This document shows positions 2,051 to 49,614 of a stretch of DNA of 55,979 nt, one piece after another. The DNA lies in the IMG/VR virus record IMGVR_UViG_3300020045_002573, positions 1 through 55,979 of that record; one strand, 5' to 3'. The translations under genes were made by a program, and so were the position numbers. This DNA is from a virus (taxonomy: Duplodnaviria; Caudoviricetes). A model generated the notes under the pieces. That model was not told the DNA's origin and searched no databases. It saw nothing but the letters and a program-made list of their open reading frames with translations. Position 1 is the first letter of the stretch, and each line of letters opens with the position of its first letter.

Positions 2051-2053
2051 GAT

Positions 2054-2890: not shown

Positions 2891-2917
2891 TCTTGTTCTC
2901 CGTTATGTAAGATTGAA

Positions 2918-3148
2918 GTTAGCGCCACCAACTACACCGGTGTCACGGGTCATACCCTATAACGCTAACATTGAAGAGGGCTCAGGTAGAGGGTCGACCG
3001 AGAAACTCCCAATCTATTGAAACCCGTTAGAACCCTCTTCAATGTTCCACCTTCTCTTACCCGGAAGGCGGTTTAGGTGCTCTATTGACACCCTATATCA
3101 ACAGAGCTTGCGGCGATTTAATTAGCTAGGTCATAGGTTACCTCCTAG
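2918..3148 (-). ncRNA. Candidate structured RNA / multi-hairpin intergenic element
   Basis: Intergenic; perfect 14-bp inverted repeat AACATTGAAGAGGG (2967-2980/3033-3046) plus several adjacent hairpins. Confidence 0.35.
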
Positions 3149-3164
3149 TTAGAAATTGAATAGG

Positions 3165-3692: not shown

Positions 3693-3702
3693 GTTATTTC
3701 TC

Positions 3703-14689: not shown

Positions 14690-15654
14690 CACGCCACCTC
14701 CTTAGCAGTATTGGTATAGAACTTCTCAATTACTTTCATATCTGGTGCCGAACCCACGATCCAGAACAAAGTCTTGTTGTCCGATTGAATCCACCCATTC
14801 TCTTTCAGCCAGCGAATCATTTTGGCCTCGTATACCGGATGGAAGGTAATACCGTCAAAGCTCTCTTTGAAATGGTCGGTATACTTAGCGTATCCGGTTT
14901 CATGTAGACTGTAATACTTCAATACGAACGGTAGGTTGTCCGGATCAACACCGATGTATTTCAGACGCGTATTGAGCCATTCCCGCTTATTAGGGCCGAT
15001 CTCCATAGCGAATACGGTCTTCACATCTTTAGGATCTCGGTTCAATCCCAGGATAAGCGAACAGATGGAATTACAAGATCCGGTCGGCATGATGACGGTA
15101 GTTACCCCTTTCGGAATGTTATCCACCTGACGAGCACCTACCTCATGGAACTTCCTCACCGTTTCCGCATCATATTGCGTGTGATCCACTGTTATACCAT
15201 AATGCACGACCAGGGAATCGGGACGCGTGAGTTCATCCACTCTTCGCTGAAGTATTGGGTTATAAGGTCCGGAGGCGTACTCGAACGAGGCTCCGAATCC
15301 ATGAGCAATCGCAGGACTTGCGTGTCCCAAGACTGTCTCGGGTTTGGAATAGACGACCAGTCGGGAGGGGAGTCCGTAGTGGGCTCCAACGATAGCCGAC
15401 ATGAGGAGTTGGGGTGATTGAAGAGAGGCACCGGACAAGACATGAGTTTTACCCTCACGGAAACGGTTCATGTACCAAATCAACTGACGACACTTGGAGC
15501 CGTTGGGGCCACCATAGCCCAAAGGAGCGAAGCTGTCCTCACGTTTGAACCAAATACCCTGATGGTTTTCCACCGGAGTCAGGTCGCCCAGGTGCTCTTC
15601 CCATTTGATCTGGTCGCGATCAAGCGATAACGTTTGAAATATCGAAGTGGTCAT
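14689..15654 (-). CDS. Fold-type II PLP-dependent enzyme, probable DNA aminoacyl-base decarboxylase
   Basis: LTPVE...FKRED...GGPNGSKCRQ (PLP lysine), SPQ, PTGS, HPVYEAK, LFWIVG; located in the hypermodification cluster. Confidence 0.8.
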   Translation of the reverse strand: MTTSIFQTLSLDRDQIKWEEHLGDLTPVENHQGIWFKREDSFAPLGYGGPNGSKCRQLIWYMNRFREGKTHVLSGASLQSPQLLMSAIVGAHYGLPSRLVVYSKPETVLGHASPAIAHGFGASFEYASGPYNPILQRRVDELTRPDSLVVHYGITVDHTQYDAETVRKFHEVGARQVDNIPKGVTTVIMPTGSCNSICSLILGLNRDPKDVKTVFAMEIGPNKREWLNTRLKYIGVDPDNLPFVLKYYSLHETGYAKYTDHFKESFDGITFHPVYEAKMIRWLKENGWIQSDNKTLFWIVGSAPDMKVIEKFYTNTAKEVA

Positions 15655-17980: not shown

Positions 17981-18502
17981 CTATTTGTCTAGAAGGTTAA
18001 GTATCGAAATCAGCTTTGGATAGAACTCGGCGGCGCTCTTTCCATCCATCGCAAGAACCTCGTCAGGTGTCTTGTTTCTCCACTCTTCAAAAGTGAAGCA
18101 TTTGCATCCGGCAATCAGCACGTTGTCAGCAACAACTGTCGTGTAGCTCATTCCAGTTATCACAATAGGAGTCTTCGACACCCACGCATCGCCAGACACC
18201 CACGCATCGCCAGACACCCACGCATTGCCAGTCACCCGCGCATTGCCAGACACCTGCGCATTGTCATACACCTGCGCATTGTCATACACCTGCGCATTGT
18301 CATACACCTGCGCATTGTCATACACCCGCGCATCGCCAGACACCCACGCATCGCCAGACACCTGCGACAGATTCGATTCGTTTTCGATCCAGCCGCCACA
18401 ATCGCCAGATGACACCACACCAACGATTGTCACAAGGGCGCGAATCCGCTTTAGCGTGCGCCTGCCCACAACCATCTCTTCGCCTGTAAATTCGTATTTC
18501 AT
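17981..18502 (-). CDS. Hexapeptide-repeat (left-handed beta-helix) phage protein
   Basis: MKYEFT...L.RIRA...GGWIE.E.NLSQ followed by about 10 (S/Y)(G/D)(D/N)A(W/Q/R)V repeats. Confidence 0.8.
   Translation of the reverse strand: MKYEFTGEEMVVGRRTLKRIRALVTIVGVVSSGDCGGWIENESNLSQVSGDAWVSGDARVYDNAQVYDNAQVYDNAQVYDNAQVSGNARVTGNAWVSGDAWVSGDAWVSKTPIVITGMSYTTVVADNVLIAGCKCFTFEEWRNKTPDEVLAMDGKSAAEFYPKLISILNLLDK
18177..18368. repeat. 18-bp coding tandem repeat
   Basis: Variants of ACACCTGCGCATTGTCAT / ACACCCACGCATCGCCAG in tandem. Confidence 0.9.
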
Positions 18503-25514: not shown

Positions 25515-27080
25515 ATGAACCATACCAGCCCCATTATACTGCTAGACAGTATACGTAAGGAGCGAGAGGTAAGAGCAGCTGAAGCCTCCCTGGCGGAGTT
25601 CGCTAAGCAAGCGTGGCACGTGTTGGAACCTGCTACCGCGTTGAAGTGGGGCTGGGCCTTGAATGCTATCTGCCTTCACCTACAAGCGGTGAGCGATGGG
25701 GATATCACTCGACTACTGATGAATGTTCCACCGGGCTCCATGAAGTCCCTGCTGACTAACGTCTTCTGGCCGGCATGGGAGTGGGGGCCGTTGGACAAAC
25801 CTCACATGCGATTCCTCAGCACGGCTCACAAGCAGGACCTGGCGGTGCGAGACAATATCAAGTGTCGCCGCCTGATTCAGTCTCCGTGGTATCAAGAGCG
25901 TTGGCCGATGACGTTGATGGGAGACCAGAACGCCAAGACCAAGTTCGAGAATGACAAGACCGGCTTTCGTGAGGCGATGGCCTTCACCTCCATGACCGGC
26001 TCTCGTGGTGACCGTGTAACCCTGGACGATCCGCTCAGCGTGGATGACGCCAACAGCGAGGCGGCTCTATCTGCGTGTGAATCGACCTTCCGTGAAGCCC
26101 TACCTACCCGCTTGAACGATGATGCCACCTCGGCTATCGTAGTGATCATGCAACGACTACACGAGAAGGATCCTAGTGGTATCATTCTGAGTGAGAGACT
26201 AGGATACGAGCACCTATGCCTACCGATGGAGTACGAGGCCGACCGCAAGTCCGTGACGTCCATAGGCTTCACTGACCCGAGGACCCAGGAAGGTGAGCTA
26301 TTGTTCCCTGAGCGATTCAACGCTAAGACCGTGGAGTCCTACAAGAAGACGCTAGGTGAGATGGCTTATGCGGGTCAGATGCAACAACACCCTGCTCCTG
26401 CGGGTGGTGGTATACTGAAGGTCAATCACTTCCAACTCTGGCCCCATGACCGTGAGCTACCTGTAATAGAGTTCGTGGTGCAAGGTTACGACACGGCGTA
26501 TACAGAAAAGACCACCAATGACCCTACCGCATTCCAAGCATGGGGAGTCTTTACCTATGCTGGTAAACGTGGAGCAATATTGTTGGACGCTTGGGCAGAT
26601 CACATGACGTTTCCAGACCTACACGCTAAGATGGTGGAGGAATGGCATAGTGTATATGGTAAAACCGGGGAGCGTAAAGGTAAGAAGGCGGATGTGATGT
26701 TGGTTGAAGCTAAGGCTTCAGGGTTATCATTGATTCAATCGTTGCGGCAGTCCAACCTACCTGCCGTGGCGTACAATCCGACTACGGACAAAGTGAGTAG
26801 AGCGCACCAAGCGGCTCCAATACTTGAACTTGATTGTCTTTACATCCTTGAATCAGCAAAGGATCCAGGAAAGCCAGTTACTTGGGCTCGTAGTTTTGTG
26901 AGTGAATTAGAGAAGTTCCCTAATGGAGCGCATGATGATCAATGCGACGTGTTTTCCATGACTATGATTTACCTGCGCGACAACTCCTGGTTAGAACTGG
27001 ATAGAGCTGACGATGATGAAGTAACTGAAATTGATTACTACGCTCTCAAGAAGCGGAAGATGAATCCTTACGCATGTTGA
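25515..27080 (+). CDS. terL: Terminase large subunit
   Basis: LLMNVPPGSMKS, TG.RGD...DDP, IMQRLHE.D, YDTA, VEAKASG, FPNGAHDDQCD. Confidence 0.93.
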   Translation: MNHTSPIILLDSIRKEREVRAAEASLAEFAKQAWHVLEPATALKWGWALNAICLHLQAVSDGDITRLLMNVPPGSMKSLLTNVFWPAWEWGPLDKPHMRFLSTAHKQDLAVRDNIKCRRLIQSPWYQERWPMTLMGDQNAKTKFENDKTGFREAMAFTSMTGSRGDRVTLDDPLSVDDANSEAALSACESTFREALPTRLNDDATSAIVVIMQRLHEKDPSGIILSERLGYEHLCLPMEYEADRKSVTSIGFTDPRTQEGELLFPERFNAKTVESYKKTLGEMAYAGQMQQHPAPAGGGILKVNHFQLWPHDRELPVIEFVVQGYDTAYTEKTTNDPTAFQAWGVFTYAGKRGAILLDAWADHMTFPDLHAKMVEEWHSVYGKTGERKGKKADVMLVEAKASGLSLIQSLRQSNLPAVAYNPTTDKVSRAHQAAPILELDCLYILESAKDPGKPVTWARSFVSELEKFPNGAHDDQCDVFSMTMIYLRDNSWLELDRADDDEVTEIDYYALKKRKMNPYAC

Positions 27081-27428: not shown

Positions 27429-28136
27429 ATGGGTGATACTTCTGAACAAATGCAGGCGCGTCCCCGCTTGTCGGTTGGAGCCTTACGGAGATTGAATCTG
27501 CTAGGGGGTAACGACAAGAGACCTTCAATAGAGAACTCTTCCTCAGTTCAGAAGTATCGAGCCCAAGAAGCTCTTTCACCCGTGATAGACGCTATAACTG
27601 CGGTGTCGCCGTTGAGTGCTCTGTTCCAACTCGCTTCGTATAGTCCTGAAGCTGAGGCGGTGATGAGGATGAAACCTATCGCTCGTAGCGGTCCTATACG
27701 TCAAGTGGATAAGTTTCATACATCCGAGTTAGACGATTTGCGAGATATATTGCAGAGTTATCTAAAACCAAAGAGTCTTCCTCCGTCTTATCAAACAAAC
27801 CTAACTCAGGGTTTGCATGCCCTAGAAAACGAACCTAACGCTGTAGGGTATCTGTTTAGTAATGCTGAAGGTATTCCTCAAACTTATGCTACAGTGTTAC
27901 CTTCTGGAAGTCGCGAGGCAGGGGCTTGGTTACCTTCTATTACCTCGTTAGTTGAACAAGGTAATGGTGCGGGTGGTCAAGCGATGCGCGATCTACGACA
28001 TCGATATGGTAAAATATCAGGTGTATCTGCTCCTGAAGCCTCTAATTTTTATCGCAAGATAGGGGCTAAGATGGAAGATAACGGTCTGGATTTTGAGTTC
28101 TACCAAGGTGGTCTAATTCAAATGAGAGGTAAATGA
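27429..28136 (+). CDS. Protein with a possible C-terminal GNAT acetyltransferase-like domain
   Basis: QGNGAG (acetyl-CoA motif A-like) and A.NFYRKIG; ends FYQGGLI. Confidence 0.5.
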   Translation: MGDTSEQMQARPRLSVGALRRLNLLGGNDKRPSIENSSSVQKYRAQEALSPVIDAITAVSPLSALFQLASYSPEAEAVMRMKPIARSGPIRQVDKFHTSELDDLRDILQSYLKPKSLPPSYQTNLTQGLHALENEPNAVGYLFSNAEGIPQTYATVLPSGSREAGAWLPSITSLVEQGNGAGGQAMRDLRHRYGKISGVSAPEASNFYRKIGAKMEDNGLDFEFYQGGLIQMRGK

Positions 28137-29950
28137 TGGGTAGTATACTCGCCGCGATAGACAACGCCAAGAGACAGGCGGCTCGTAGGGCTCGGGACCT
28201 GTACACTGATCCGCGAGGATACTTGCAACAGCTGGCGGACACTCTTGCTAACAGTAACGCAGGTACGGCTCCAGTGATCTCCAAAGGAGAGCTGACTAAC
28301 CGTCGTAAGACCAAAGCTGAGCGCCAGCAGGAGTACTTCGACATGGCGACCAACTCTATCAACGGAGGCCTGGGAGTCATCAAGTCGAAGGGTGGTAATT
28401 GGCTAAGCGGAAGCGTAGAGAATGCGCTGAGCGGGTTGAAGAAAGATACGTTTAGCTACGATATGATACCTATGTTATTGGAAAGGCTAAGAAAAGAAGG
28501 AGTACCTAGCAATCTATTCAAGTTACCTGGTGAAGAGGCTCAACTGGAGAATTTGATAGATCACCCTCTATATCATCCAGTCATGACGAAATTTGTAAAA
28601 GAGCACCCCCTCAATAACTGGATCGAAGGCCCTCTCACCAAGTACGTCCGTAATGATATGGCTACTCCAGGGGACCCAGTGAGAGCGTTGGCTGAGCGAG
28701 GGGTGTTGCATGTTGATCCAGGTGCTTTGAATTTCAGACCGGAGATGCATGGCAAATACCTAGGTCCTGGTCAGACTGCGGTTGCTCAGTCACTACCTGC
28801 TAAGTCGTGGGAGGGTGTCGCAGACAATGTAATAGCTTCGGAACCAGCCTCCACCTATCAGAACTTTGGAAGTTCCAATTTAGGTGAAGCTTGGATTAAC
28901 GCGCTCGATCCTAATACCCCATTCTACCGACCGGCTGAAAAACACCTAGGAGACGACCTAGGTTTCAATCACCTCATAGACGAGCTATCCAATTCAATCA
29001 ATCCTGAATCCGGGCTACCGCGTCACCTGCAGTTCCCCGTTGATCGCCTGAATAAAGTCACTGTACCTCAAGCCGTGGAGCGTGTAGCTCAAATCAATGC
29101 TTGGCGTGCGGCTCAGAAAGCTGAACTCGATGCCCAGAAGGCTAACAACGCGGCGACTCACCTACACAAAGAGTATCCCGATGACCCGCGTGGAATGCGC
29201 TGGGTGGAGTTGAAACAACCTGAGCTGAGTAGTATCAAAGAAGCCCCTAATGAAGACTATATAGGAGCTCAACAGCAGTCTCTCAAAGACGCCCTCAAAT
29301 ACGAAGGCGATACCATGGGCCACTGTGTTGGAGGCTATTGCGACGACGTGGCTTCCGGTAAGTCTAAGATCTACTCCCTGCGCGACAAGAAGGGCCAGCC
29401 TCATGTGACTATTGAGGTGGAGCCTGGAGCAAAGCGATCATTCAGATTAGAGCGCGACTATGGGCGTTTGACACCTGAAGAACGAGCACTGGTGGACACC
29501 TACGAGGGTCCATTGAAACATTACTACCCCGACCAAGCAGGAATCATTACGCCTGAGAGACTTCAAGAGTTGTATGATGCTAGCGCTGAGCCATCCAAGA
29601 TAATCCAAATCAAGGGTAAAGGTAACGCCAAACCGAATGATGACTACCTCCCATTCGTGCAAGACTTCGTCAAGTCTGGGCAGTGGAGCGATGTAGGAGA
29701 CTTGCAGAATACGGGCTTGTATAGGAAAACCGCACTTACGCCAGAAGAGCTATCGGCTTATCAAGGTGGGGACTACCTAACTATGGATGAGATCAAGAAG
29801 CTGAGAGAAGGTAAACCATGGACTCTGATAGATGATCTTCCAGATATGTTCGCATCCGGCGGTTTGATTCAATCTAAAAATGTACAAACTGTCGGTGATT
29901 TATCGGTTATACTAAATCAACTCCGGAATGGAATAACTAACAATGCCTGA
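28133..29950 (+). CDS. PcfJ-like domain protein
   Basis: L.YEG..MGHCVGGY...IYSLRD..G.PHVTIEV...QIKGKGN; ends FASGGLI. Confidence 0.72.
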   Translation: MMGSILAAIDNAKRQAARRARDLYTDPRGYLQQLADTLANSNAGTAPVISKGELTNRRKTKAERQQEYFDMATNSINGGLGVIKSKGGNWLSGSVENALSGLKKDTFSYDMIPMLLERLRKEGVPSNLFKLPGEEAQLENLIDHPLYHPVMTKFVKEHPLNNWIEGPLTKYVRNDMATPGDPVRALAERGVLHVDPGALNFRPEMHGKYLGPGQTAVAQSLPAKSWEGVADNVIASEPASTYQNFGSSNLGEAWINALDPNTPFYRPAEKHLGDDLGFNHLIDELSNSINPESGLPRHLQFPVDRLNKVTVPQAVERVAQINAWRAAQKAELDAQKANNAATHLHKEYPDDPRGMRWVELKQPELSSIKEAPNEDYIGAQQQSLKDALKYEGDTMGHCVGGYCDDVASGKSKIYSLRDKKGQPHVTIEVEPGAKRSFRLERDYGRLTPEERALVDTYEGPLKHYYPDQAGIITPERLQELYDASAEPSKIIQIKGKGNAKPNDDYLPFVQDFVKSGQWSDVGDLQNTGLYRKTALTPEELSAYQGGDYLTMDEIKKLREGKPWTLIDDLPDMFASGGLIQSKNVQTVGDLSVILNQLRNGITNNA

Positions 29951-32567
29951 TACAACGCTTTCAGACGAATCCTCTTTTGGGCTAGATGCGCCTCTTCCTG
30001 GGGTTACTGAGCTTCCCGATGGAGGAGCCTTGATCGAGATGGACGCTGAGCTGGAAGACGACTCCGGCGCAGACGCTGGATTCAATTCCAACCTAGCCGA
30101 AACCCTGGATGAGTTTCAACTCAACGAGATCGCTACCTCCCTACTCGACTTGATCGAGAAGGACAAAGAGGCTCGCACTGAGCGGGACAAACAACAGGAA
30201 GAAGGAATCAGACGTACCGGACTCGGCGACGACGCACCCGGAGGAGCTACATTTGATGGCGCTTCCAAGGTGGTCCATCCGGTACTGGCTGAAGGCTGTG
30301 TAGACTTCTCAGCCCGAGCTATCAAGGAACTGTTCCCCTCTAACGGTCCGGTTCGTACCAAGATCGTCGGCGAGAGTAATGAAGTTTCGCTAGCCAAGGC
30401 TAAGAAGAAGCGGGACTTCCTGAACTTCTACCTCGTCGAGAAGATGCCGGAGTACCGCTCCGAGAAGGAAACGCTACTCACTCAACTTCCTCTAGGAGGC
30501 TCTCAGTACGAGAAGTATTGGCATGATGGCAAGCGGGTGCGGATGGAATTCGTGCCTATCGACAAGATGTTCCTGCCATATGCCGCCAATTCCTTCTACA
30601 CCGCGTCGCGCCGTACTCACGAACAAGAGCGCACGGAAGAGTATATCAACCGTGAAGTGAAGCAGGGTTTCTACCGCGACATCTTCGGACCGAGAGCTAC
30701 CTCCGCGCCTGAAGGTACTAGCAGTTCCAAGGCTAACGAGAAGATTGAGGGCAAGACCGAGTCAGGCTACAACGAAGACGGTATTCGCGTCATCTACGAA
30801 GTGGATTGCACTTGGGACGTAGAGGAAGAAGGCGAATTCAAGCCTTACATTATTCACATTGACGAACCTACTGGTAAGATCGCTGCCATCTATCGCAACT
30901 GGCGCGAAACCGATGAAGGTTCGGAGAAGCTGGATTGGTGGGTGGAAGACAAGTTCCTTCCGTGGCGTGGAGCATATGGTATCGGCTTGCCTCACCTTAT
31001 CGGCGGTCTTGCGGCCTCACTGACCGGCTCTCTCAGAGCCCTGCTGGACTCGGCCCACATCAACAACGCGCCAACCGCCGTCAAGCTCAAGGGTGGTAGA
31101 GCTAGCGGTCAGAACGTGTCGATGGACATCACCTCGGTTACGGAGATAGAAGCTCCTGCTGGAGTAGATGACATCCGTAAGATCATGATGCCTCTGCCGT
31201 TCAATCCTCCTAGCGCCGTATTGTTCCAGCTGCTAGATTGGATCACGACGCAAGCCAAGGGTGTCGTAGCTACCGCCGAAGAGAAGATCGCGGATGCCGG
31301 TTCCAATATGCCGGTGGGGACTACTCTAGCTCTGATTGAACAAGGTAGCCAGGTCTTCAGTTCTATTCATGCTCGCCTTCACGATAGTCAACGCAAGGCT
31401 CTCAAGATCATCTGTCGCCTGATCGCGGACTACCCCGAGAGTATCGCTCAAGACCTTCAGCGCTTCGGCTTGACTCCGGAAGACTTTCAAGCTACCGACG
31501 ACATTGAACCTATCTCCGATCCTAACATCTTCAGCGAGACGCAACGCTTCGCTCAGATGCAATCGGTGATGCAGTTGGCGGCCCAGGACGCCGCAGATCC
31601 TAACATGCATTGGAACAAGCTGGCTCTGCGTCGTCGTATGCTGGAACTGCTACGTGTGGACGGTATTGATGAGCTGCTGCCGAAGCCTCCTAAGCCTTTG
31701 ACCGCCGATCCTCTGACCGAGTCTCTCTCGGCGATGAAGGGTATGCAGATCAAGCCAGACTTCGAGCAAGATCACATTGCACACTTACACGGGCACCTTG
31801 CCTACCTGTCCAGCCCGTTTGTCGTCCAGAATCCCCTAGTTCAGGGGCAAGCTATGATGGCTGTGTTGGCGCACATGCAAGAACACGTAGAAATGCTGAC
31901 GAAGCAAGTTGTGGGCGAGGTGGCGCAGTCCTTCGTAGCGCAGGGTGTTTCACAAGACGCCGCCGCCGCCGCTGGCATTGCGCAGGCTTCGGAGCAGCTA
32001 GCGCAGCAGCTTAGTAAGATCATGCCGGCTATGTTCGGTCTGCTTCAACAAGTTCAGACTAAGATGCCGAAGCCTCCTATGCCTCCGGAAGTCACTGCCA
32101 GCTTGCAAATCGCTCAGATGGACATTGAACGTAAGTCCAAGGTTGATCAAGCTACGTTGCAAATGGATCAACAGAAGTTCCAAGTTGAGAGCCAGATGAA
32201 GCAACAGCAAGCTCAGCTTGATCAGCAGCTACGTATGCAACAGATGCAGATTAATCAGGAACAGGTTCAGGCTAAGTTGCAAGCTGACAATCAGCGTGTG
32301 CAAATGGAAGCCCAGGTTCAGCAGTTTGAGCAAATGTTGGCTCAGCAGAAAGCGCAGTCCGATGATCGCAATAATCAACTGGAAGCTCAGCTTTCCATAC
32401 TCCTGAACAAGATGGACAATCAGCAACATCAAGAGACGGAGATTGCCAAGAACCATGAGGACAATCAAACCGCTATTCAGATTGAGCAGATGAAAGAAGG
32501 CCACAAGTTGGCAGGCGGCATTATAGATAATGTGATGGCTCCCGCTGTAGATCAACCTATTGAATAA
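29943..32567 (+). CDS. Portal protein
   Basis: 874 aa; NLAE, F.GAS.V.HP.LAE, G.YG.GL.H.IGG, PVGTTLAL.EQG, SDPNIFS..QR; Gln-rich coiled-coil tail. Confidence 0.88.
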   Translation: MPDTTLSDESSFGLDAPLPGVTELPDGGALIEMDAELEDDSGADAGFNSNLAETLDEFQLNEIATSLLDLIEKDKEARTERDKQQEEGIRRTGLGDDAPGGATFDGASKVVHPVLAEGCVDFSARAIKELFPSNGPVRTKIVGESNEVSLAKAKKKRDFLNFYLVEKMPEYRSEKETLLTQLPLGGSQYEKYWHDGKRVRMEFVPIDKMFLPYAANSFYTASRRTHEQERTEEYINREVKQGFYRDIFGPRATSAPEGTSSSKANEKIEGKTESGYNEDGIRVIYEVDCTWDVEEEGEFKPYIIHIDEPTGKIAAIYRNWRETDEGSEKLDWWVEDKFLPWRGAYGIGLPHLIGGLAASLTGSLRALLDSAHINNAPTAVKLKGGRASGQNVSMDITSVTEIEAPAGVDDIRKIMMPLPFNPPSAVLFQLLDWITTQAKGVVATAEEKIADAGSNMPVGTTLALIEQGSQVFSSIHARLHDSQRKALKIICRLIADYPESIAQDLQRFGLTPEDFQATDDIEPISDPNIFSETQRFAQMQSVMQLAAQDAADPNMHWNKLALRRRMLELLRVDGIDELLPKPPKPLTADPLTESLSAMKGMQIKPDFEQDHIAHLHGHLAYLSSPFVVQNPLVQGQAMMAVLAHMQEHVEMLTKQVVGEVAQSFVAQGVSQDAAAAAGIAQASEQLAQQLSKIMPAMFGLLQQVQTKMPKPPMPPEVTASLQIAQMDIERKSKVDQATLQMDQQKFQVESQMKQQQAQLDQQLRMQQMQINQEQVQAKLQADNQRVQMEAQVQQFEQMLAQQKAQSDDRNNQLEAQLSILLNKMDNQQHQETEIAKNHEDNQTAIQIEQMKEGHKLAGGIIDNVMAPAVDQPIE

Positions 32568-33780: not shown

Positions 33781-34230
33781 ATGACTTTCCTACTGCGCGC
33801 CTGGCCGTATCTGTTGGCTGGATTCCTCGGCTTCAACTTCGCCTGGGTCATTCAGCAAAGCCGTCTGGACAAGGCGATCAACGAGCTCACCGAATACGAG
33901 ATGGCCATCGGCCAGCAGATCATCGAGGAGCAGAACCGAACCACCCGACTGAAGGAGGCCACCGAAAATGACTGGTACAAGAACCTTAACGCTCTGCATG
34001 ATTACTACAAGTCTCACCCTGTCCGCGTGTTGTCCCCCTGTGCGTCCATGCGAACCAACACCCTACCCAGTAGCTCCAGCGGCGCTTATGCAACCTCCTC
34101 CAACCCTGAATCTAGTGCCGGTGGAGCTACGACCGAAGTTACAGCTGAAGAATGCGCTGTGACCACTTTGCAATTATTGGAGTTACAAGCATGGACACAG
34201 GCGTTACATCACTCGAACAATGGAAAATAG
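33781..34230 (+). CDS. Rz-like inner-membrane spanin
   Basis: N-terminal TM segment, coiled coil, position after the endolysin, embedded lipoprotein gene. Confidence 0.75.
   Translation: MTFLLRAWPYLLAGFLGFNFAWVIQQSRLDKAINELTEYEMAIGQQIIEEQNRTTRLKEATENDWYKNLNALHDYYKSHPVRVLSPCASMRTNTLPSSSSGAYATSSNPESSAGGATTEVTAEECAVTTLQLLELQAWTQALHHSNNGK
33968..34162 (+). CDS. Rz1-like outer-membrane lipoprotein spanin (embedded, +1 frame)
   Basis: Signal peptide with lipobox LSAC followed by a Pro-rich mature region; GGAGG upstream. Confidence 0.78.
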   Translation: MTGTRTLTLCMITTSLTLSACCPPVRPCEPTPYPVAPAALMQPPPTLNLVPVELRPKLQLKNAL

Positions 34231-41440: not shown

Positions 41441-43861
41441 ATGACAACTTATTCCAGCGTCTTCGGCGATAACACAATACCGTCGGCGGACAACAGCTTC
41501 GCTGAGGTGGCGCTGTCGGCTGACACCGAGTTCTACTGGCCGGAGCTAGCCACCGGGGATAACCTGGTAGCCGACACGATGGAAGTGACGGCCTCCGCAG
41601 CATACAGCATGAAGTTTCCAGAAGCCTCCTCGGTATCCGTTGGGCGAGCAATAGTCGTACGTAACGCCGGAGCCTACTCAGTAACGGTCACCGACAACGC
41701 AAGTGGTGTGTTGGCCGTGGTGTTAGCTGGCTCTTCTAAGCTGTTTCAAATCACTGACAACTCCACGACTGCGGGTTCATGGGCGGTATTGACACTGGGC
41801 GCAGGCACTTCCGAGGCGGACGCGTACCAGCTGGCAGGAAACGGATTTACCGTAGATGGAACCCGCCTAGTTGTCAATTACCCGGTACAAAATATAGTAA
41901 CCGACTTGACGCTGAACACAACTCATCGTGGCAAGTGCCTGGAGTTTACAGCGGCTAATAAGACACTGACGTTGATGATCGCGTCCGTGGCCGGCTCAGG
42001 CTTTGGATTTACCGTCAAGAACAGCACGGGCGGTAGCGTCACGCTCGACGCAGCTGGATCGGACACACTAGACTCTTACACCACGTTCAACCTGAGCCCT
42101 CTGGAGTCGGTTGATATTGTCAGCTCTGGGTCAAAGTGGGTCATCCTGACTCGTGGTGTCAGCACTATCTTTCAATTCACCAAGCTGGTGAAAGACATCA
42201 GCTCGGCGACGTCGTTTACGCTAACCTCCGCCGAAGCCTCAAATAAGCTGCTTCAATTCATCGGAACCCCTACCGCCGACACTACGGTGATAGTACCCTC
42301 CGTTGTGGCTGTATACTACGTGCAAAACACCTTCACCAATGTCGGCTACAGCTTGACCTTGAAAACGGCAGCAGGTACCGGGGTTGAGCTGGAATACTTC
42401 GACCGCGTGGTCATCTACTGCGACGGTGTGAATGTAGTCCTAGCCCAGAGTACTGATGCCGCCTCCGCAGCAGCGAGCGCAACTGAGGCCTACAACAGTC
42501 AAGTCGCTGCCGGGGTATCCGAAGACAACTCAGCGCTCAGTGCGGCCGACGCGCTTGATTACAAGACCGACGCCGAGGCCTCGGCGCTCAATTCGCAAGA
42601 GTGGGCTACCAAGACTACCGGGCAAGTAGAGGCTACCGACTACTCTTCCAAGGCCTACGCGATAGGCGGTACAGGTATCACCTCCGCTATCGGCGCGGCA
42701 AAGGAATGGGCTATCACGGTCGGTGCGGCGGTAATCTCGGGAGCCTACTCGGCTAAAGAGTGGGCGGTAGGCACCTTCACCAGAGGATCCGCTGGGGGTG
42801 GCTCAGCGAAGGACTGGGCCACTTACCTAGCTGGTACGGTGGATGATTCCGGGTATTCGGCGAAATACAACGCAAATTTGTCGGGCACAAGCGCATCTAA
42901 CGCGGCGGACAGCGCCACGAACGCACACAACTCAGAGGTTGCTGCAGGGTTGTCAGCCAGCGCTGCTCATGACTCCGAGGTGGCCGCTGCTGCCTCTGCT
43001 GCGTCTATCGCCGGAGGTCCTGTCTATAGTGTGAATGGGCGAACTGGTGCGGTGACCGGTGTTCAAGACACCCTCGTCTCCGGCACCAACATCAAGACGA
43101 TCAACGGGCAAGCGTTGCCTGGTTCTGGTGATCTCTTAATAGCAGGTGGTCTAGCTCCCACAGCCATCAAAACCGCCGACTACACTGCAGTCGTCAATGA
43201 CCTCGTTCGCGTCGATTCCACCAGTGCAGCCTTCACCGTCACGCTTCCTAGCTCCCCCGCTGATGGTGACAAAGTGGGCCTGTTCGACACTGCCAACCAG
43301 TGTGGTACGCACGCCGTATTGATTGCTGCGGCAGGGGGCAAGACGGTAGAAGGTGATGCTACGGGGTTGTCGGTAAACATCAACGGCTCGTATGTCGCGC
43401 TGCTCTACAACTCCGCTACGACGAACTGGAAGCTGCAACAGACGCCGATGACGGGGGTGTATCAGCCACTTTCTTCCGCGCTGACAACTTGGGCAGGAAA
43501 GACCGCACCAAGTGGCGATGTGCTTGGTACCACGGATGCTCAAACCCTCACCAACAAAACCCTAACCGGCTACACCGAAACCGTCTATGACCTCTCAGGC
43601 ACGAGCATTGATCCAGCCAACGGGACAGTGCAGACCAAGACGCTATCAGCCAACACTACATTCACCGAGGCAATTGGTGATGGGCAGTCCGTGCTGCTTG
43701 GTATCACCGCATCCAGCTATACCGTTACGTGGCCTTCAATGACCTGGAGCAAGGTCGGTGGCAGCGGTACCGCTCCGACGCTGACTAGCTCAGGTGTCAA
43801 TTGGGTTGTGCTGTGGCAGGTAGGCGGCACGCTGCGTGGTGCTTTCTTGGGGACTGCATGA
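41441..43861 (+). CDS. Tail fiber protein
   Basis: 806 aa; Ala-rich shaft with repeated SAK.WA units; VYSVNGRTG, TNIKTING; C-terminal YTETV...IDPANGTVQT domain. Confidence 0.8.
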   Translation: MTTYSSVFGDNTIPSADNSFAEVALSADTEFYWPELATGDNLVADTMEVTASAAYSMKFPEASSVSVGRAIVVRNAGAYSVTVTDNASGVLAVVLAGSSKLFQITDNSTTAGSWAVLTLGAGTSEADAYQLAGNGFTVDGTRLVVNYPVQNIVTDLTLNTTHRGKCLEFTAANKTLTLMIASVAGSGFGFTVKNSTGGSVTLDAAGSDTLDSYTTFNLSPLESVDIVSSGSKWVILTRGVSTIFQFTKLVKDISSATSFTLTSAEASNKLLQFIGTPTADTTVIVPSVVAVYYVQNTFTNVGYSLTLKTAAGTGVELEYFDRVVIYCDGVNVVLAQSTDAASAAASATEAYNSQVAAGVSEDNSALSAADALDYKTDAEASALNSQEWATKTTGQVEATDYSSKAYAIGGTGITSAIGAAKEWAITVGAAVISGAYSAKEWAVGTFTRGSAGGGSAKDWATYLAGTVDDSGYSAKYNANLSGTSASNAADSATNAHNSEVAAGLSASAAHDSEVAAAASAASIAGGPVYSVNGRTGAVTGVQDTLVSGTNIKTINGQALPGSGDLLIAGGLAPTAIKTADYTAVVNDLVRVDSTSAAFTVTLPSSPADGDKVGLFDTANQCGTHAVLIAAAGGKTVEGDATGLSVNINGSYVALLYNSATTNWKLQQTPMTGVYQPLSSALTTWAGKTAPSGDVLGTTDAQTLTNKTLTGYTETVYDLSGTSIDPANGTVQTKTLSANTTFTEAIGDGQSVLLGITASSYTVTWPSMTWSKVGGSGTAPTLTSSGVNWVVLWQVGGTLRGAFLGTA

Positions 43862-45738
43862 TGCTGGCTGCTAAATTACTGTCGGGCATTGGCGGCGAGG
43901 ATAAGTTGTACGTGGATGACGTCTTTTCAGCCTTTGTTTATGAAGGATCGGCTTCCGCGCTAGAGTTGAACACAGGGTTTAAGCCCGATTTTGGATGGAT
44001 AAAGGATAGGGGTAATACGGCTCCGCATCGACTGTTTGACTCTGTTCGCGGCAGTAATTACGCACTGTATAGCAATGACACCGCAGCACAAGAAATGGTT
44101 AGTGATAGGGCACCTACGTTTAATACAGCGTCAGTTTCTATCCCGTCAAACAATTATACGAATGGTGCTGGGAAGCGGCTTGTAGGTTGGTTCGCTAAGA
44201 AAGCCCCCAAATTCTTCGATGTGGTGACTTATACGGGGGACGACGGCGTGCAGAGCGTCGCCCACAATCTTGGCGTTGTTCCAGGCATGGTGGCGATCAA
44301 AGCCCTTGGCGTAACAGGTAACTGGTTTGTTTGGCACAACGGCATTACCAACACCGAATTACTGAAACTTAATCTGACCGATGCAAAATCCACATCGGCG
44401 GGGATGTGGAATTCAACCACTCCTACAGCGACACACTTTACAGTAGGTGCCTCGGCAGGGAATTCGTCTACAACAACATACGTCGCCTACCTCTTCGCCC
44501 ACGACACTTCAGCAGATGGAATTATTCAGTGTGGCTCATTCACCGCGGATGGCAGCGGCAATGCGACGGTGGATCTGGGGTGGGAGCCCCAGTACGTTCT
44601 GTTTAAGAATATCAGCGTTTCTGAAAGTTGGTTTGCTGTCGATTCGATGCGCGGTTATTCAAATGGTGGAAACGATCCAATCCTCTTGCCAGACCTCAGC
44701 AACGCTGAAATAACAATAACAAACTACGGATACCCTACAGCGACAGGATTCGTTACCGCATCAATGACCGGAACCAGAACCTACATCTACCTCGCCATCC
44801 GCCGCCCCAACAAGCCGCCGACGAGTGGGACGCAGGTTTATAACGCGATTGCACGGACTGGTACGGGTGCTGCTGCTACGGTGAATGGGGTTGGGTTTGC
44901 GCCGGATTTGTTAATCAGCTCTGCACGTAATGCTGTTGCGTACAAAGGCTGGCAAGATAGGTTGCGTGGTGGAAACAGACCGCTTCACAGCGATGCAACA
45001 GAGGCCGAGCAGTCATTAACGCAGAATGTATTGGAGTTCAATAACGACGGCGTGAAACTTGGGACAAATTCCGATGGAGCGTTTACGAATAACAGTGGGG
45101 ATACCTACATCAACCACTTCTTCAAACGCGCTCCGGGGTTCTTTGATGTTGTTTGCGCAACCGCTTCAGCCTATGCCGTAACTGTTTCGCATTCACTAGG
45201 AGTCATTCCAGAGTTAATAATAGGAAAAGACAGGACTGCGGCAGGTCCTTGGATAGTGTGGAACAAGGATGTAGTCGCTACAGACTCCACCTATACGTTG
45301 AAGCTAAACACTACAGGGGCACAAGCCAATAACGGATACCCAATAAATTCTGTTACGGCATCAGCGTTTTATTCGGGTATTGCGTCGCTGAGCTCGTCAA
45401 ATTTGGTGTTTTACCTTTTCGCATCCCTGCCCGGAGTCTCGAAAATAACGAGTTTCGTCGGCAACGGCACAACGCAAAACATCGAATGTGGATTCACAAC
45501 CGGCGCTCGCTTCGTGCTAGTCAAGGCAACAAGCACTACGGGGAATTGGAACGTGGGAGATTCTACACGCGGAATCGTGGCTTCAACGGACCCGTTGCTT
45601 TACTTGAATTCAACCGCCGCTGAAGTGACTGCTGACGATTGGCTCGACCCCTACGCCGGGGGTTTTACAGTCAATGAAACCTCGAATGCCCATGCCAATA
45701 CCAATGGCGTCACGTATTTAGTGCTTGCAATAGCGTAA
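43858..45738 (+). CDS. Repeat-domain receptor-binding / tail fiber tip protein
   Basis: About six repeats of (F)DVV.YTG...H.LG..P....IK...W...(D)...L..N...Y.AY.F; ATGA-coupled to the tail fiber. Confidence 0.7.
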   Translation: MMLAAKLLSGIGGEDKLYVDDVFSAFVYEGSASALELNTGFKPDFGWIKDRGNTAPHRLFDSVRGSNYALYSNDTAAQEMVSDRAPTFNTASVSIPSNNYTNGAGKRLVGWFAKKAPKFFDVVTYTGDDGVQSVAHNLGVVPGMVAIKALGVTGNWFVWHNGITNTELLKLNLTDAKSTSAGMWNSTTPTATHFTVGASAGNSSTTTYVAYLFAHDTSADGIIQCGSFTADGSGNATVDLGWEPQYVLFKNISVSESWFAVDSMRGYSNGGNDPILLPDLSNAEITITNYGYPTATGFVTASMTGTRTYIYLAIRRPNKPPTSGTQVYNAIARTGTGAAATVNGVGFAPDLLISSARNAVAYKGWQDRLRGGNRPLHSDATEAEQSLTQNVLEFNNDGVKLGTNSDGAFTNNSGDTYINHFFKRAPGFFDVVCATASAYAVTVSHSLGVIPELIIGKDRTAAGPWIVWNKDVVATDSTYTLKLNTTGAQANNGYPINSVTASAFYSGIASLSSSNLVFYLFASLPGVSKITSFVGNGTTQNIECGFTTGARFVLVKATSTTGNWNVGDSTRGIVASTDPLLYLNSTAAEVTADDWLDPYAGGFTVNETSNAHANTNGVTYLVLAIA

Positions 45739-45747
45739 GGAATAACC

Positions 45748-46293
45748 ATGCCCTACCTAAACACAGAAACAAACAGCTTCAACATCTCCGAACAAGAGAT
45801 CAAGCTGGCTTATCCAAATACGAGCTTCACAGATCCGTTTGTTCCTTTCGATCCGTTCGTCTTCTACTTCACTGCTCCTCAACCTGAGCACGATCAAGTC
45901 ATTCAGTCTTGCCGGGAGATTGCCCCTGTCCTGACCAGTAAGGGACATTATGAGCAGGAGTGGGAGATTGTCCCCGCGTTCTCTGAATACACGGATGGGG
46001 ATGGTGTTCTACACACAGTTGCGGAGCAGGAAGCTAAGGCGATTGAAGCAGAACGCAAAGCACGGGTGCCGCAGTCGGTTACACCAAGGCAATTCAGGCA
46101 AGCCCTGACGCGACTTGGATTCCGCCAGATAGTCGAATCGGCAGTATCCGCTTCCGATCAGGACACGAAAGACTGGTACGAGTTCGCCACGGAGTTCGTC
46201 CGTACCAACGAGCATATCGTCGCTATGGCCTCCGCGCTTGGTATCACCGAAGAACAAGTGGATGCCGTATTCATTGAGGGGTTCAAGCTATGA
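45748..46293 (+). CDS. Tail fiber assembly / accessory protein
   Basis: YPNTSF...P; C-terminal VPQSVTPRQFR.AL...W.EFAT...D..F. Confidence 0.65.
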   Translation: MPYLNTETNSFNISEQEIKLAYPNTSFTDPFVPFDPFVFYFTAPQPEHDQVIQSCREIAPVLTSKGHYEQEWEIVPAFSEYTDGDGVLHTVAEQEAKAIEAERKARVPQSVTPRQFRQALTRLGFRQIVESAVSASDQDTKDWYEFATEFVRTNEHIVAMASALGITEEQVDAVFIEGFKL

Positions 46294-46805
46294 CCATCAA
46301 CTTATCAGACGCCCTGCAAGGGGCTGCTGCACCGATTCCTGGTACGGGGATTAGCTTTGCTCCTACCGGGAACATCGCTGCTACGAATGTGCAGAACGCT
46401 ATCGCTGAACTAGATACTGAGAAGGGTGATGTGACGCTGGCTGGTGCGCAGACGCTAAGTAACAAGACCTTCACCAACTACACAGAAACCCACTACACTC
46501 CCTCCGCTGGCTCAAGCTTCACCGTCGATCTATCGACAGGCACAGTCCAAGGCTACACGACAAACGCCAACACGACTGTAACGCTGCCCACGCCTGCTGC
46601 TGGTAAGTCCTTTCAAGTCCAGATTGCTTACGGTGGCGCACACACGCTCACATGGGCAGTGACCGGAGGCTCGGCTATCGGCTGGCCTGCAACTGCTCCT
46701 GCTGCTTCAGCGGCATCGGGCAAGACTGACGTGTTCAATTTCAGTTGCAACGCTGCCGGGACCAAGTGGTTAGGAAACGCGTTCGTTCTCGGAGCGACTA
46801 CCTGA
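46290..46805 (+). CDS. Short tail fiber / carrier protein
   Basis: IAATNVQ.AI.EL, QTLSNKT..NYTET, TVDLS.G.VQ; paralogous to the C-terminus of 41441..43861. Confidence 0.65.
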   Translation: MTINLSDALQGAAAPIPGTGISFAPTGNIAATNVQNAIAELDTEKGDVTLAGAQTLSNKTFTNYTETHYTPSAGSSFTVDLSTGTVQGYTTNANTTVTLPTPAAGKSFQVQIAYGGAHTLTWAVTGGSAIGWPATAPAASAASGKTDVFNFSCNAAGTKWLGNAFVLGATT

Positions 46806-48952
46806 TGTTTGCGGCGAATCAAGGAGGTACGCAGGTCGCAACGGCGAGCGCTGCTGAGGCGATTGATTTCGACGGGACGAATGATTACCTGAGTCGGAGT
46901 TCTGATTTGGTGGGGAATGCGGACGGGAAGACTTTTACGTTTTCGTGTTGGGTGTGGGGTGGCGATTTGGGGGCAAACAACCTCCCGATTTATGTAGGTA
47001 CTGATGCGCTAGGTAATACTCGTAACTACATAATTCTTGGCACTGATTCCTTTGGGTTGAAGATAAACATTCGCATGGTTAATTCGTCTTTCTCGAATGC
47101 TATGGTAGCTACAGGTACGGTATCTAACTACATCCCTTCAGGAACATGGATACACATACTAATCTCTGGCGATAACAGTACAAATACACTCAAGTGTGCT
47201 ATTCAAGATGTTGTTGTTACATTGACTGATGATTATTCAAGCACGGACGATATTAAGTTTACGTTTCAGTATCATCGAATCGGTATAGACGCGTCCAACA
47301 AATGCAAAGGCCGCCTCTCCCACATCTTTCTCGACTACACCTACCGCGACCTCTCAGTAGAAGCCAACCGTCGCCTATTCATCACAGCCGACCGCAAGCC
47401 GACTCCAAAGGCTACTTTAGCTGCGCTGAACCCCATCCTCTACATGCCGATGGACGATCCGACCACGGCGCATATCAACGAAGGCACTGGCGGGAATTTC
47501 AACCTCACCGGCACAGTTGCTCGGAGTGGGAGAGGGCCGAATCAGGGGGTTGTGCCTTATAGCGACTTGAATGGGAGTTCGCAGTATTTGAGTCGGACGA
47601 GTTTGACTGGTGTTGCTGACGGTAAGCAGGTAACTATTTCATGTTCGTTTGTTGCAGACAGCATCACCGGAAATGATTACCTAATAAACATAGGAACATC
47701 TGGCGCTGATACGTTTGCTTTACGCAGAGCATCTGGACTACTCCAATTGTTGGCGTTCACGACTGGGCAAAGTTCAACTGTTGTCAGTGTAGACATAACA
47801 AGCAACCTCGTAATTGGTCGAAACTACCACATAGTTGTTTCATTCGATGCTGCCGATACCGGGAAACGCCACGCGTATTTGAACGGACAAACCCCTTCTG
47901 ATATTTCTTGGCACGCATACAACAACTCTACGATAGACTTAACGCAATCCGCATATAGGGTTGGCGCATTCCACAGCGACACATCGTCCAACTGGGACGG
48001 CCGTCTCGGCAACCTCTATTTCAACACCACCTACATCGACCTCAGCATCCCCGCTAACCTAGCAAAGTTCTGCACAGGCACGGGCATAGACTGCAAGCCG
48101 CTACCGCTTGGTGCGAATGGCGAGCTACCCACTGGCTTGTCGCCTTTAATCTACCTGCCGATGTATGGTAACAACGCGGGAAAGAACTACGGGACGGGTG
48201 GCGACTTCACTGTCGTATCAGGGCCATTCGTTGGAGCCAGAGGGCCGGATGAATATTGGGGGAATAAGGCGGATTTTGATGGGAGTACGGGGTATCTGGC
48301 GAGGACGAGTGCGCTGAGTGGGATTGCTGATGGGAAGACGTTTAGTTGTTCATTTTCGTTTAACAGTGACTCAGTAGCTGCCGGCCAGGTTTATTTACTG
48401 AACATGGGAGCTTCAGCCGATGGGCGTGGGTTTTGGGTTCAGAGAAGCGGAAGTGTGCTGCGCTTGTTTGGTTACGACAGCACAGGAGGACAAGTTCTAT
48501 TGTGCTCTTTTGGTACGCTTTCTGCCGCAACCCAATACAGTGTTCAAGCCTGTGTCGATTTGGCAGACGCAGGGAAAAGGTTTGTGTATTTGAATGGGGT
48601 GTCACAATCAGTAACGTGGTCTGCATATACAAACTCGAATATCAGCTACACAACAGCAGATCGCATTAGATTCGGTGCAAGTATCGACACAACCCCCGCC
48701 AATTATTACGACGGCAAACTCTCCGAGTTCTACTTCACCACCGACTACATCGACTTCAGCCAAGAAGCCAACAGGCTCAAGTTCCGTGACTGCTTCGGAA
48801 ACCCGGTAGAACTTCAATCCCAAATAGCCGCAGGAACAATCCCAAATCCCGCTGTATATCTCAGATTCGATCCAGCGAACCAAGGTAAGAATTACGGGAC
48901 GGGCGGTGATTTCACAAAATCAGGAACAATTACAGATGGGGGGAATCTCTAA
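46805..48952 (+). CDS. LamG/concanavalin-A-like triple-repeat receptor-binding protein
   Basis: Three repeats beginning (F/L)(D/N)G...YLSR.S.L.G.ADGK and ending G.L...Y....Y.D.S..AN...N.GTGG.F. Confidence 0.72.
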   Translation: MFAANQGGTQVATASAAEAIDFDGTNDYLSRSSDLVGNADGKTFTFSCWVWGGDLGANNLPIYVGTDALGNTRNYIILGTDSFGLKINIRMVNSSFSNAMVATGTVSNYIPSGTWIHILISGDNSTNTLKCAIQDVVVTLTDDYSSTDDIKFTFQYHRIGIDASNKCKGRLSHIFLDYTYRDLSVEANRRLFITADRKPTPKATLAALNPILYMPMDDPTTAHINEGTGGNFNLTGTVARSGRGPNQGVVPYSDLNGSSQYLSRTSLTGVADGKQVTISCSFVADSITGNDYLINIGTSGADTFALRRASGLLQLLAFTTGQSSTVVSVDITSNLVIGRNYHIVVSFDAADTGKRHAYLNGQTPSDISWHAYNNSTIDLTQSAYRVGAFHSDTSSNWDGRLGNLYFNTTYIDLSIPANLAKFCTGTGIDCKPLPLGANGELPTGLSPLIYLPMYGNNAGKNYGTGGDFTVVSGPFVGARGPDEYWGNKADFDGSTGYLARTSALSGIADGKTFSCSFSFNSDSVAAGQVYLLNMGASADGRGFWVQRSGSVLRLFGYDSTGGQVLLCSFGTLSAATQYSVQACVDLADAGKRFVYLNGVSQSVTWSAYTNSNISYTTADRIRFGASIDTTPANYYDGKLSEFYFTTDYIDFSQEANRLKFRDCFGNPVELQSQIAAGTIPNPAVYLRFDPANQGKNYGTGGDFTKSGTITDGGNL

Positions 48953-49129
48953 ATGATCGACTACAAAGAGCTATTGCGTAAGTACATGCTAATCGTTGCC
49001 GCTGAAGAGGGCGTGTCTCCTGATCGCGTATTAAGTGACTTCGACGCACAGCCAGAAACCTCTGGTGATACGGAGCTTACGCGGGAAGAATTCGACGAGA
49101 TTCACCGCATCTTCGAGGAATCAAAATGA
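48953..49129 (+). CDS. Small hypothetical protein (58 aa)
   Basis: MIDYKELLRKYM...EEGVS; fills the gap with an ATGA overlap; not in the ORF track. Confidence 0.6.
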   Translation: MIDYKELLRKYMLIVAAEEGVSPDRVLSDFDAQPETSGDTELTREEFDEIHRIFEESK

Positions 49130-49614
49130 GCCTATACGCACAAATCAGCAACAACGCAATCGAGCGCATCAATATCACGCTCCCGACAGTCATCAACGGT
49201 ACGACCATTCCTGACGGTGCCACTGGCCTCGAAGCCTTCGGACTTGTGCCGATTACAGGTAGCGAGCCTGCCTACGATCCAGCCCTACAGCGTCTCTCCG
49301 GGCCTAGCTATACGCTGGCAGGGGATACTGTTATCCGGGAGTGGACGGTTGAAGAACTGTCGCGAGAAGAAATCCGGGCAAGAGATATTCCGCAGTCGGT
49401 ATCAATGCGCCAAGCGCGCCTTGCTCTTCTTGCTGCTGGCCTGCTCGATACTGTGCAAGCCGCGCTTGCTGTTGCTTCTCAAGCCGATCAAATCGAGTGG
49501 GAATTCGCCACTGAGGTGAAGCGGGACTACCCGCTGATTCTGAACCTTGCCGCTGGTTTGGGCCTGACTGAACTCCAGCTAGATGAACTGTTTACCGCAG
49601 CGAGCAAGTTGTGA
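49126..49614 (+). CDS. Tail fiber assembly / accessory protein
   Basis: P.YDP..Q.L...W; PQSVSMRQARLAL...EWEFATEV...LDELF; paralog of 45748..46293. Confidence 0.65.
   Translation: MSLYAQISNNAIERINITLPTVINGTTIPDGATGLEAFGLVPITGSEPAYDPALQRLSGPSYTLAGDTVIREWTVEELSREEIRARDIPQSVSMRQARLALLAAGLLDTVQAALAVASQADQIEWEFATEVKRDYPLILNLAAGLGLTELQLDELFTAASKL

Follow-up and report, generated by a model that had tools for sequence, protein, structure and literature searches.

The window, by which we mean the whole stretch of DNA analysed here, is the entire viral record IMGVR_UViG_3300020045_002573 of a tailed phage (Caudoviricetes); it measures 55,979 bp and is 99%-complete. At 46805–48952 it carries a tail-fibre or receptor-binding gene for a protein of 715 amino acids, with a likely ATG start codon at 46805 and a stop codon at 48950–48952. 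The synonymous codons of this gene swing three times between a G/T-rich and a C-rich choice, and it is this swing, and what may cause it, that we describe. An AlphaFold2 model of the protein (25 sequences; mean pLDDT, the predicted local distance difference test, 78.8) consists of three beta-sandwiches. The top Foldseek matches of the model are the neurexin domains LNS1–6 and the laminin domains LG1–3 (E about 1e-17, probability 1.00). The repeats had been called LamG-like in an original prediction made from the letters alone, and judged by the predicted fold this label is correct: the gene encodes three LamG-fold domains. The protein itself gave no Pfam match at E ≤ 0.01 and no PHROG match, and a six-frame Pfam search gave none at E ≤ 1. 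Many homologues carry a precomputed PF13385 assignment, the Giesbergeria homologue scoring 32.9 bits against a cut-off of 27.6. The DNA of the gene showed no similarity match among deposited phages, and a listing of public sequencing runs gave none that holds the locus.

A protein database search, run on a database clustered at 90% identity in which near-identical proteins are merged, scored 8000 candidates and found at least 715 relatives. The best 120 were kept; they are 693–749 residues long and 46–61% identical to the window protein. As these relatives show, the three-domain architecture is old and conserved. Their alignment shows four highly conserved stretches that alternate with three variable cores, and an inner conserved stretch spans the last part of one domain, a linker and the first part of the domain that follows. 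The gene can be divided as follows.

46805–48952, + strand: tail-fibre/receptor-binding gene, 715 residues, three LamG-fold domains (open reading frame, translation, AlphaFold2 model and Foldseek)
46850–46954, + strand: opening block A1 (residues 16–50), conserved, G/T-rich and C-poor at synonymous sites
46955–47308, + strand: variable core 1 (residues 51–168), putative exchanged cassette, AT-rich
47309–47428, + strand: closing block C1 (residues 169–208), conserved, C-rich and G-poor at synonymous sites
47429–47524, + strand: conserved linker 1 (residues 209–240), zero crossing of the skew
47525–47644, + strand: opening block A2 (residues 241–280)
47645–47992, + strand: variable core 2 (residues 281–396)
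47993–48112, + strand: closing block C2 (residues 397–436)
48113–48238, + strand: conserved linker 2 (residues 437–478)
48239–48358, + strand: opening block A3 (residues 479–518)
48359–48709, + strand: variable core 3 (residues 519–635)
48710–48829, + strand: closing block C3 (residues 636–675)
48830–48949, + strand: conserved tail after C3, without a G-rich part

Along the gene the GC skew oscillates three times between about +0.45 and −0.4. In windows of 120 nt, positive peaks of +0.43 (46880–46999), +0.36 (47540–47659) and +0.49 (48260–48379) alternate with negative peaks of −0.42 (47300–47419), −0.32 (47960–48079) and −0.35 (48620–48739), which bears out the positions and signs of the three cycles in the original prediction. 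Its description of the cores as AT-richer holds for core 1 (GC 0.36–0.41) and less so for cores 2 and 3. The skew stays at fourfold-degenerate sites, where windows of 40 codons contain 14 G and 1 C at 46835, 2 G and 13 C at 47285, 1 G and 11 C at 47945, 15 G and no C at 48245, and no G and 10 C at 48665. Among the two-fold codons ending in a pyrimidine (NNY), the C-ending share rises from 0.16 in opening blocks through 0.50 in cores to 0.95 in closing blocks. As a statistic we used the variance of the third-position skew in windows of 30 codons, compared with 1000 synonymous-codon shuffles. Windowed variance was chosen over the cumulative-sum (CUSUM) range, which suits an oscillation poorly; the raw minimum and maximum fourfold skew of each open reading frame (ORF) was uninformative, since many ORFs reach ±1 from few sites. 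The LamG gene reaches z = 17.5 for G versus C and z = 18.9 for GT versus CA. None of the other 52 ORFs of the window goes beyond 4.0 and 6.6, values that both come from the neighbouring fibre ORF (43801–45738). When the shuffles also fixed the codon box and the next base, z was 16–18 and the observed value was reached in none of 1000, so that next-base or codon-box context is ruled out as the cause of the skew. The claim that the flip of synonymous codons exceeds what amino-acid content explains is therefore upheld, and the oscillation is real and stronger than had been described.

Homologue DNA was gathered from viral, genome and metagenome contigs. Sequences with in-frame stops in the extraction (L002, L020, L034, L040 and L046), exact duplicates (L011, L015, L024, L027, L031 and L048) and partial, one-domain and two-domain forms were left out, as was L050, and the four-domain genes L029 and L033 were handled apart. 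The final set comprised 29 distinct three-domain genes, 33–55% identical to the window protein. Blocks were set from the protein conservation profile only, as the first 40 and the last 40 residues of each conserved stretch. In 28 of the 29 homologues the closing blocks exceed the opening blocks in the C-fraction of NNY codons; opening blocks have the higher fourfold GC skew, likewise in 28; and G-ending codons among those ending in a purine (NNR) are more frequent in the opening blocks in 22. The amino-acid-normalised skew profile of the homologues is phase-locked with that of the window gene, and the per-gene shuffle z has a median of 4.8 and lies above 3 in 21 of the 29. Over the family, the fourfold sites of opening blocks hold about 0.31–0.41 G, 0.10 C, 0.18–0.23 A and 0.30–0.36 T, and those of closing blocks 0.33–0.45 C, 0.10 G, 0.24–0.27 T and 0.21–0.29 A, a pattern close to a strand mirror. 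Fourfold GC is 0.41–0.55 in the blocks against 0.30–0.33 in the cores. The skew is maximal in the most conserved motif and not at the core edge. Terminal stretches of the gene, which have no variable neighbour on one side, lack the matching half of the pattern. Separately, we noted that the frame of L050 (3001–5127), from a metagenome-assembled genome labelled Candidatus Gracilibacteria, is interrupted under table 11 by TGA 11 times and never by TAA or TAG, which points to recoding of TGA in the phage or its host.

Among the 233 homologue pairs below 45% identity, identity at fourfold sites equals the expectation from composition (0.30 vs 0.29). In these same pairs the fourfold composition is G 0.31 and C 0.10 in opening blocks, G 0.10 and C 0.33 in closing blocks, and G 0.15 and C 0.15 in cores. 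The fourfold sites of distant homologues are saturated and yet the skew is kept; a force must therefore still be acting, and shared ancestry cannot explain the pattern. Closer pairs share synonymous sites at 0.45–0.50 in the blocks against 0.31 in the cores, which fits backbones that retain their arms while the cores are replaced.

The second-highest skew score in the window belongs to another fibre gene upstream of the LamG gene.

43861–45738, + strand: second fibre gene, two DUF7483 modules, same polarity (PF24299 match, E = 9e-98)

The DUF7483 family has six conserved islands alternating with five variable segments. In the window gene, the islands at 44470–44598 and 44782–44907 are C-rich in their 5' half and G/T-rich in their 3' half. 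Across 70 homologue DNAs every internal island starts C-rich and ends with an excess of G and a deficit of C; the G−C difference is, for example, −0.34 at residues 201–210 and +0.35 at 221–230, and −0.21 at 301–310 and +0.32 at 321–330. The last island, which no variable segment follows, is C-rich throughout, and the first is G-rich only at its 3' end. When conservation alone defines the islands, the 3' half of internal islands exceeds the 5' half in fourfold GC skew in 69 of the 70 homologues; the shuffle z has a median of 3.4 and exceeds 3 in 39 of them. Fourfold GC is 0.59 and 0.40 in the two island halves, against 0.33. The skew correlates only weakly with that at codon positions 1 and 2 (0.17–0.24), and several bins are opposite in sign, which argues that the sign is set by position relative to the variable segments and not by amino-acid content. 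This weak correlation, together with the synonymous shuffles, rules out an amino-acid-driven skew. The DUF7483 family is unrelated to the LamG family and shares the same positional skew rule.

The rule is not a property of the LamG fold. In 36 LamG_3 domains of cellular genes (29 loci, one locus of an unpublished genome having been left out), a comparison of the first with the last 35 model positions showed no flip: the NNY C-fraction was 0.49 and 0.52, up in 19 and down in 16 (p = 0.33), and the fourfold skew difference was opposite in sign. Nor is there any polarity in the portal family, where the island halves of 74 homologue DNAs split 37 up and 37 down, the shuffle z has a median of 0.5 and lies above 3 in only 3 of 74, and no block-type contrast in fourfold GC is seen. 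A similar oscillation in capsid or portal genes had been named in the original prediction as evidence against it; neither the portal family nor the other 52 ORFs of the window show one, and none of the refuting conditions set there was borne out. The skew is thus tied to the cassette architecture. The portal gene of this phage has moderate skew heterogeneity of its own, which is absent as a shared trait in the 74 homologues.

The architecture itself bears the marks of exchange between phages. In the 120 LamG-family proteins the flanks are 0.70–0.76 identical and the cores 0.25–0.28 (mean pairwise identity of core 1, 0.26), and the identities of the three cores are uncorrelated (r = 0.06–0.13). 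A core was shared at an identity of at least 0.8 in 58 cases, in none of which all three cores were shared; P0007 and P0117, for instance, have core identities of 1.00, 1.00 and 0.16. Each core position falls into about 100 clusters at 70% identity (102 clusters among the 120 proteins for core 1). High-identity core pairs were found at the same position in 81 of 81 cases and never across positions. Shared tracts end in conserved stretches in 62 of 77 internal cases, or 43 of 54 unique ends. In the DUF7483 family the islands are 0.62–0.86 identical and the variable segments 0.27–0.34; all 95 high-identity pairs of variable segments are discordant elsewhere in the protein, and the five segments assort independently. 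A search for the reverse transcriptase family PF00078 gave no match at E ≤ 0.01 in the 99%-complete record. These comparisons at the protein level support the view that the variable segments of both fibre families are exchanged independently and free of reverse transcriptase, probably by homologous recombination in the conserved stretches between cores. A cassette exchange without reverse transcriptase had been proposed from the start, and the independent swapping of cores, the tract ends in the flanks and the lack of PF00078 in the record all agree with it.

Two further observations concern the cassettes. Each core has a semi-conserved middle patch (47105–47299 in the window, residues ~115–155, and the equivalents in the other cores), where some shared tracts end, and each cassette may comprise two exchangeable halves. 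Relatives were also found with four (L029, L031, L033), two (L030, L032, L059) or one (L036–L039) LamG-type repeats; by these repeat counts, the number of cassette positions differs among phages.

We propose that the asymmetry is the footprint of polar recombination intermediates or an adaptation to them, and put the probability of this at about 0.45. A recombination-linked origin is the best supported of the explanations considered, with translation kinetics as its main rival. A break in or beside a cassette would be resected to leave a 3' tail on the strand that runs 5'→3' into the cassette, and the same tail would serve as the invading primer. In both arms it is the strand entering the cassette 5'→3' that is G-rich and C-poor. 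The polarity of C-poor sequence to the left and G-poor sequence to the right of each core, which the original prediction had tied to resection, agrees with that exposed by bidirectional 5'→3' resection of a break in the core, as set out in an excerpt of PMC6786661. A near strand mirror is what a DNA-level process centred on the cassette would predict, and translation would not.

Two causes could act on such an intermediate. Arms whose 3' tails pair well may hitch-hike with the exchanged segment or be selected. RecA-type proteins are said, from older in-vitro selection work, to prefer GT-rich DNA, and selection for G/T-rich arms is compatible with our data. Part of PMC3763553 reports that RecA prefers a TGG-type, Chi-like sequence. 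Alternatively, heteroduplex, which would form only in the arms, may be repaired with a strand-asymmetric bias towards GC. GC-biased gene conversion is described for bacteria in PMC4450053, and it would predict what is seen here: synonymous GC is raised in the arms, which can form heteroduplex, and not in the segments replaced wholesale. Classical GC-biased gene conversion is strand-symmetric, and we infer that the polarity seen here would need an added, strand-directed correction step. A search for an oriented Chi-like word, made without the host Chi as reference, gave no shared word, as the best 8-mer common to the top strand of opening blocks and the bottom strand of closing blocks was present in no more than 8 and 7 of the 30 sequences; the 'away strand' control of this search is a mere reverse complement and carries no information.

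The phage has recombination genes of its own, all on the − strand and assigned by PHROG matches.

1571–4440, − strand: recombination module
1571–2050, − strand: Holliday-junction resolvase
2054–2890, − strand: Cas4-domain exonuclease
3165–3692, − strand: SSB-like (single-stranded DNA-binding) protein
3703–4440, − strand: Sak4-like annealase

The exonuclease, SSB and Sak4-like proteins had been suggested as the machinery of exchange. The genes are indeed present, together with the resolvase; the role given to Sak4 did not stand, as none of five relatives' records that carry the skewed gene (three of the five at least 90% complete) has a clear match to it and one has a match at 14.9 bits. Sak4 as a common partner of the skew is thus not borne out in these five records, and because of this no specific recombinase is implicated.

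Several observations weigh against a recombination-linked origin. Its link to the skew is a co-occurrence in two gene families, and no intermediate, break site or conversion tract was observed. The flip is absent in two very AT-rich homologues (L012 and L014) and in distant one-domain relatives, while two-, three- and four-domain relatives retain it. The mirror is imperfect, as A is not enriched in closing blocks and G is also raised in the 5' halves of DUF7483 islands. The three LamG repeats share homology, and so do the two DUF7483 modules, which leaves about three to four truly independent islands and not eight. The families of the partner genes (n = 20 and n = 10) show weak signals in the same direction. 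The evidence for exchange has its own limits: the count of zero cases with all three cores shared is partly forced by the 90% clustering of the database; 11 of the 54 unique tract ends lie inside cores, the ends outside the flanks falling in the semi-conserved mid-core patch or at core edges; and a count of tract ends favours conserved stretches, where mismatches are sparse, and is weak evidence. Finally, closing-block codons are somewhat 'preferred' in this phage, with a mean log relative synonymous codon usage (ln RSCU) of +0.08 against −0.05 in the cores, and translation may contribute there.

This last point leads to the main rival, in which codons are selected for co-translational folding or accuracy, with slow G/T-ending codons at the start of each unit and fast C-ending codons at its end, and the strand skew simply follows from this. 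The portion of PMC5438181 consulted documents rare codons whose positions are conserved between homologues. The closing-block codons TTC, TAC, ATC, ACC, TCC and CGC are commoner in the phage, the value of +0.08 becoming +0.09 when late genes serve as the reference, and the opening blocks of domains 2 and 3 lie about 35–70 codons past the end of the previous domain. The opening-block codons, however, are no rarer than core codons (ln RSCU −0.07 vs −0.05). CTG, the commonest leucine codon of the phage, is missing from two leucine columns of closing blocks (0 of 16 and 0 of 19 sequences) and yet is used in opening blocks. The 36 cellular LamG domains, several of them in tandem, have no flip; the DUF7483 pattern recurs at islands within modules and not only at domain borders; the near mirror at fourfold sites has no translational rationale; and the portal family, from the same late region, lacks the pattern. 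Codon optimality can account for no more than part of the closing blocks, and we regard translation kinetics as an unlikely cause of the whole. A purely structural role is a good deal less probable. The blocks could pair in mRNA or single-stranded DNA and loop out cores or linkers, or the skew could keep the arms free of self-structure. The skewed blocks are locally unstructured, with 47285–47404 folding at only −13.8 kcal/mol despite a GC of 0.56, and the real sequence folds less well than its shuffles in three of four tests (z = +1.3, +1.2, +1.4 and +0.1), as avoidance of structure predicts. Pairing between blocks finds no such agreement: in none of nine opening/closing pairs does complementarity exceed that of composition-matched shuffles (z from −1.0 to +1.9), the blocks are not linked by long inverted repeats within 46700–49000, and no G-quadruplex motif with loops of 12 or fewer occurs on either strand. 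Structure avoidance would moreover leave the sign of the skew unfixed relative to the variable segments.

Repeated deamination of cytosine on resected single strands, which the original prediction had offered as one source of the pattern, would be an evolutionary analogue of strand-switch mutation clusters. It has the right polarity, with C depleted to the left of the core and G to the right, and NNY codons of the opening blocks are shifted towards T. It should also reduce GC, with more T left of the core and more A right of it. Fourfold sites of the blocks are instead richer in GC than those of the cores, mainly through added G on the left side and added C on the right; closing blocks have no excess of A, and the skew peaks in the most conserved motif and not at the core edge. 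This part of the prediction is therefore not supported, and we regard it as very improbable. The slimmest chance is that the pattern has no function and comes from one ancestral repeat, from a patchwork of differing genomes or from amino-acid content. The repeats are mutually homologous, the ORFs of the genome are a compositional mosaic (GC content at third codon positions, GC3, from 0.31 to 0.74), and closer homologues share synonymous sites of the blocks above expectation (0.45–0.50 vs 0.30). The skew persists, however, in distant homologues saturated at fourfold sites, shuffles that fix both amino acids and context still give z = 16–18, the correlation with positions 1 and 2 is weak, and the same rule appears in the unrelated DUF7483 fold. 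An explanation without function is largely refuted.

Returning to polar recombination, the locus can be set beside systems already described. The account of the T-even gp38 adhesins in part of PMC3157838 likewise has hypervariable segments (HVS) split by highly conserved glycine-rich motifs (GRM), and both gp38 and the present genes draw on a large shared pool of interchangeable segments. The fold differs (three LamG domains, or DUF7483, here), there is no PHROG or Pfam sequence link, and a polarity at synonymous sites is not mentioned in that part of the gp38 account. The LamG locus resembles gp38 in how it works and lies outside its family. Strand-switch mutation clusters, in the excerpt of PMC6786661 cited above, have the same geometry, with top-strand C affected to the left of a break and top-strand G to the right; those are single C>T damage events in yeast, whereas here an evolutionary steady state is seen in which GC is raised and both G and C are gained. 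Diversity-generating retroelements of tail fibres are also a targeted diversification of a receptor-binding protein. No reverse transcriptase was found in the record, and whole segments are replaced at about 26% identity rather than altered by adenine-specific substitution; the LamG locus is not a diversity-generating retroelement. Conserved rare-codon clusters, going by the same portion of PMC5438181, share with our genes a codon choice conserved by position across homologues. The axis here runs between G/T-ending and C-ending codons and not between rare and common ones, and it is tied to the borders of variable segments and roughly strand-mirrored. No prior description of a polar synonymous skew in fibre genes was found in the full-text literature, subscription journals not being covered.

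The surroundings of the LamG gene contain related modules. The gene is followed by a partner ORF.

49126–49614, + strand: downstream partner ORF of the LamG gene, same PHROG (6034) as 45748–46293

An ORF of this phrog_6034 type comes after each fibre gene, 45748–46293 after the first and 49126–49614 after the LamG gene. In 21 loci the N-terminal 83 residues of the latter are conserved beside the LamG gene, while its C-terminus varies. Its family (loci L001–L028) shows a weak polarity, being C-rich in the first 30 residues and C-poor and T-rich at residues 61–80. The fibre region 41441–46805 plus 49126–49614 looks duplicated as modules. The C-terminus of the 806-residue protein (residues ~684–806) and the ORF at 46290–46805 look paralogous, because both match the same stretch just upstream of relatives' LamG genes. 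In several relatives the LamG gene lies directly after the large protein, so that the DUF7483 fibre module looks inserted here.

Compositional heterogeneity is found elsewhere in the window as well. Third-position GC content is strongly heterogeneous against synonymous shuffles at 33781–34230 (z = 7.5) and 25515–27080 (z = 5.4), without strand skew. Heterogeneity of third-position skew is moderate at 17981–18502 (− strand; z = 3.1 and 3.8) and 29943–32567 (+ strand; z = 3.2 and 4.3). GC3 is 0.31–0.39 in the ORFs at 11730–13047, 14147–14692 and 27429–28136, against 0.50–0.74 in most others.

Phages change host mainly by exchanging receptor-binding segments, a process whose rules at the DNA level are poorly known. 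With somewhat less confidence than for the two families at hand, we suggest that phage fibre genes which trade segments carry sequence-encoded, direction-specific 'recombination arms', in which the synonymous sites make the strand entering the cassette G-rich and C-poor. Such arms could be shaped by second-order selection for exchange competence or by strand-asymmetric GC-biased repair of heteroduplex. If this is true, the polarity of the skew would in general mark cassette-exchange loci, and the direction of their intermediates, by computation alone, and would offer a way to locate such loci and their exchange units in metagenomes from sequence alone. The signature would point to the geometry of the intermediate, with 3' ends directed into the cassette. 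It would also be a clear case of synonymous sites shaped by a force other than translation, with a bearing on the debate about biased gene conversion in microbes and on selection for evolvability. The finding has practical relevance for the recoding and engineering of fibre genes. Should the cause be translational after all, few position-specific codon signals known from phage genes would be as strong as this one.

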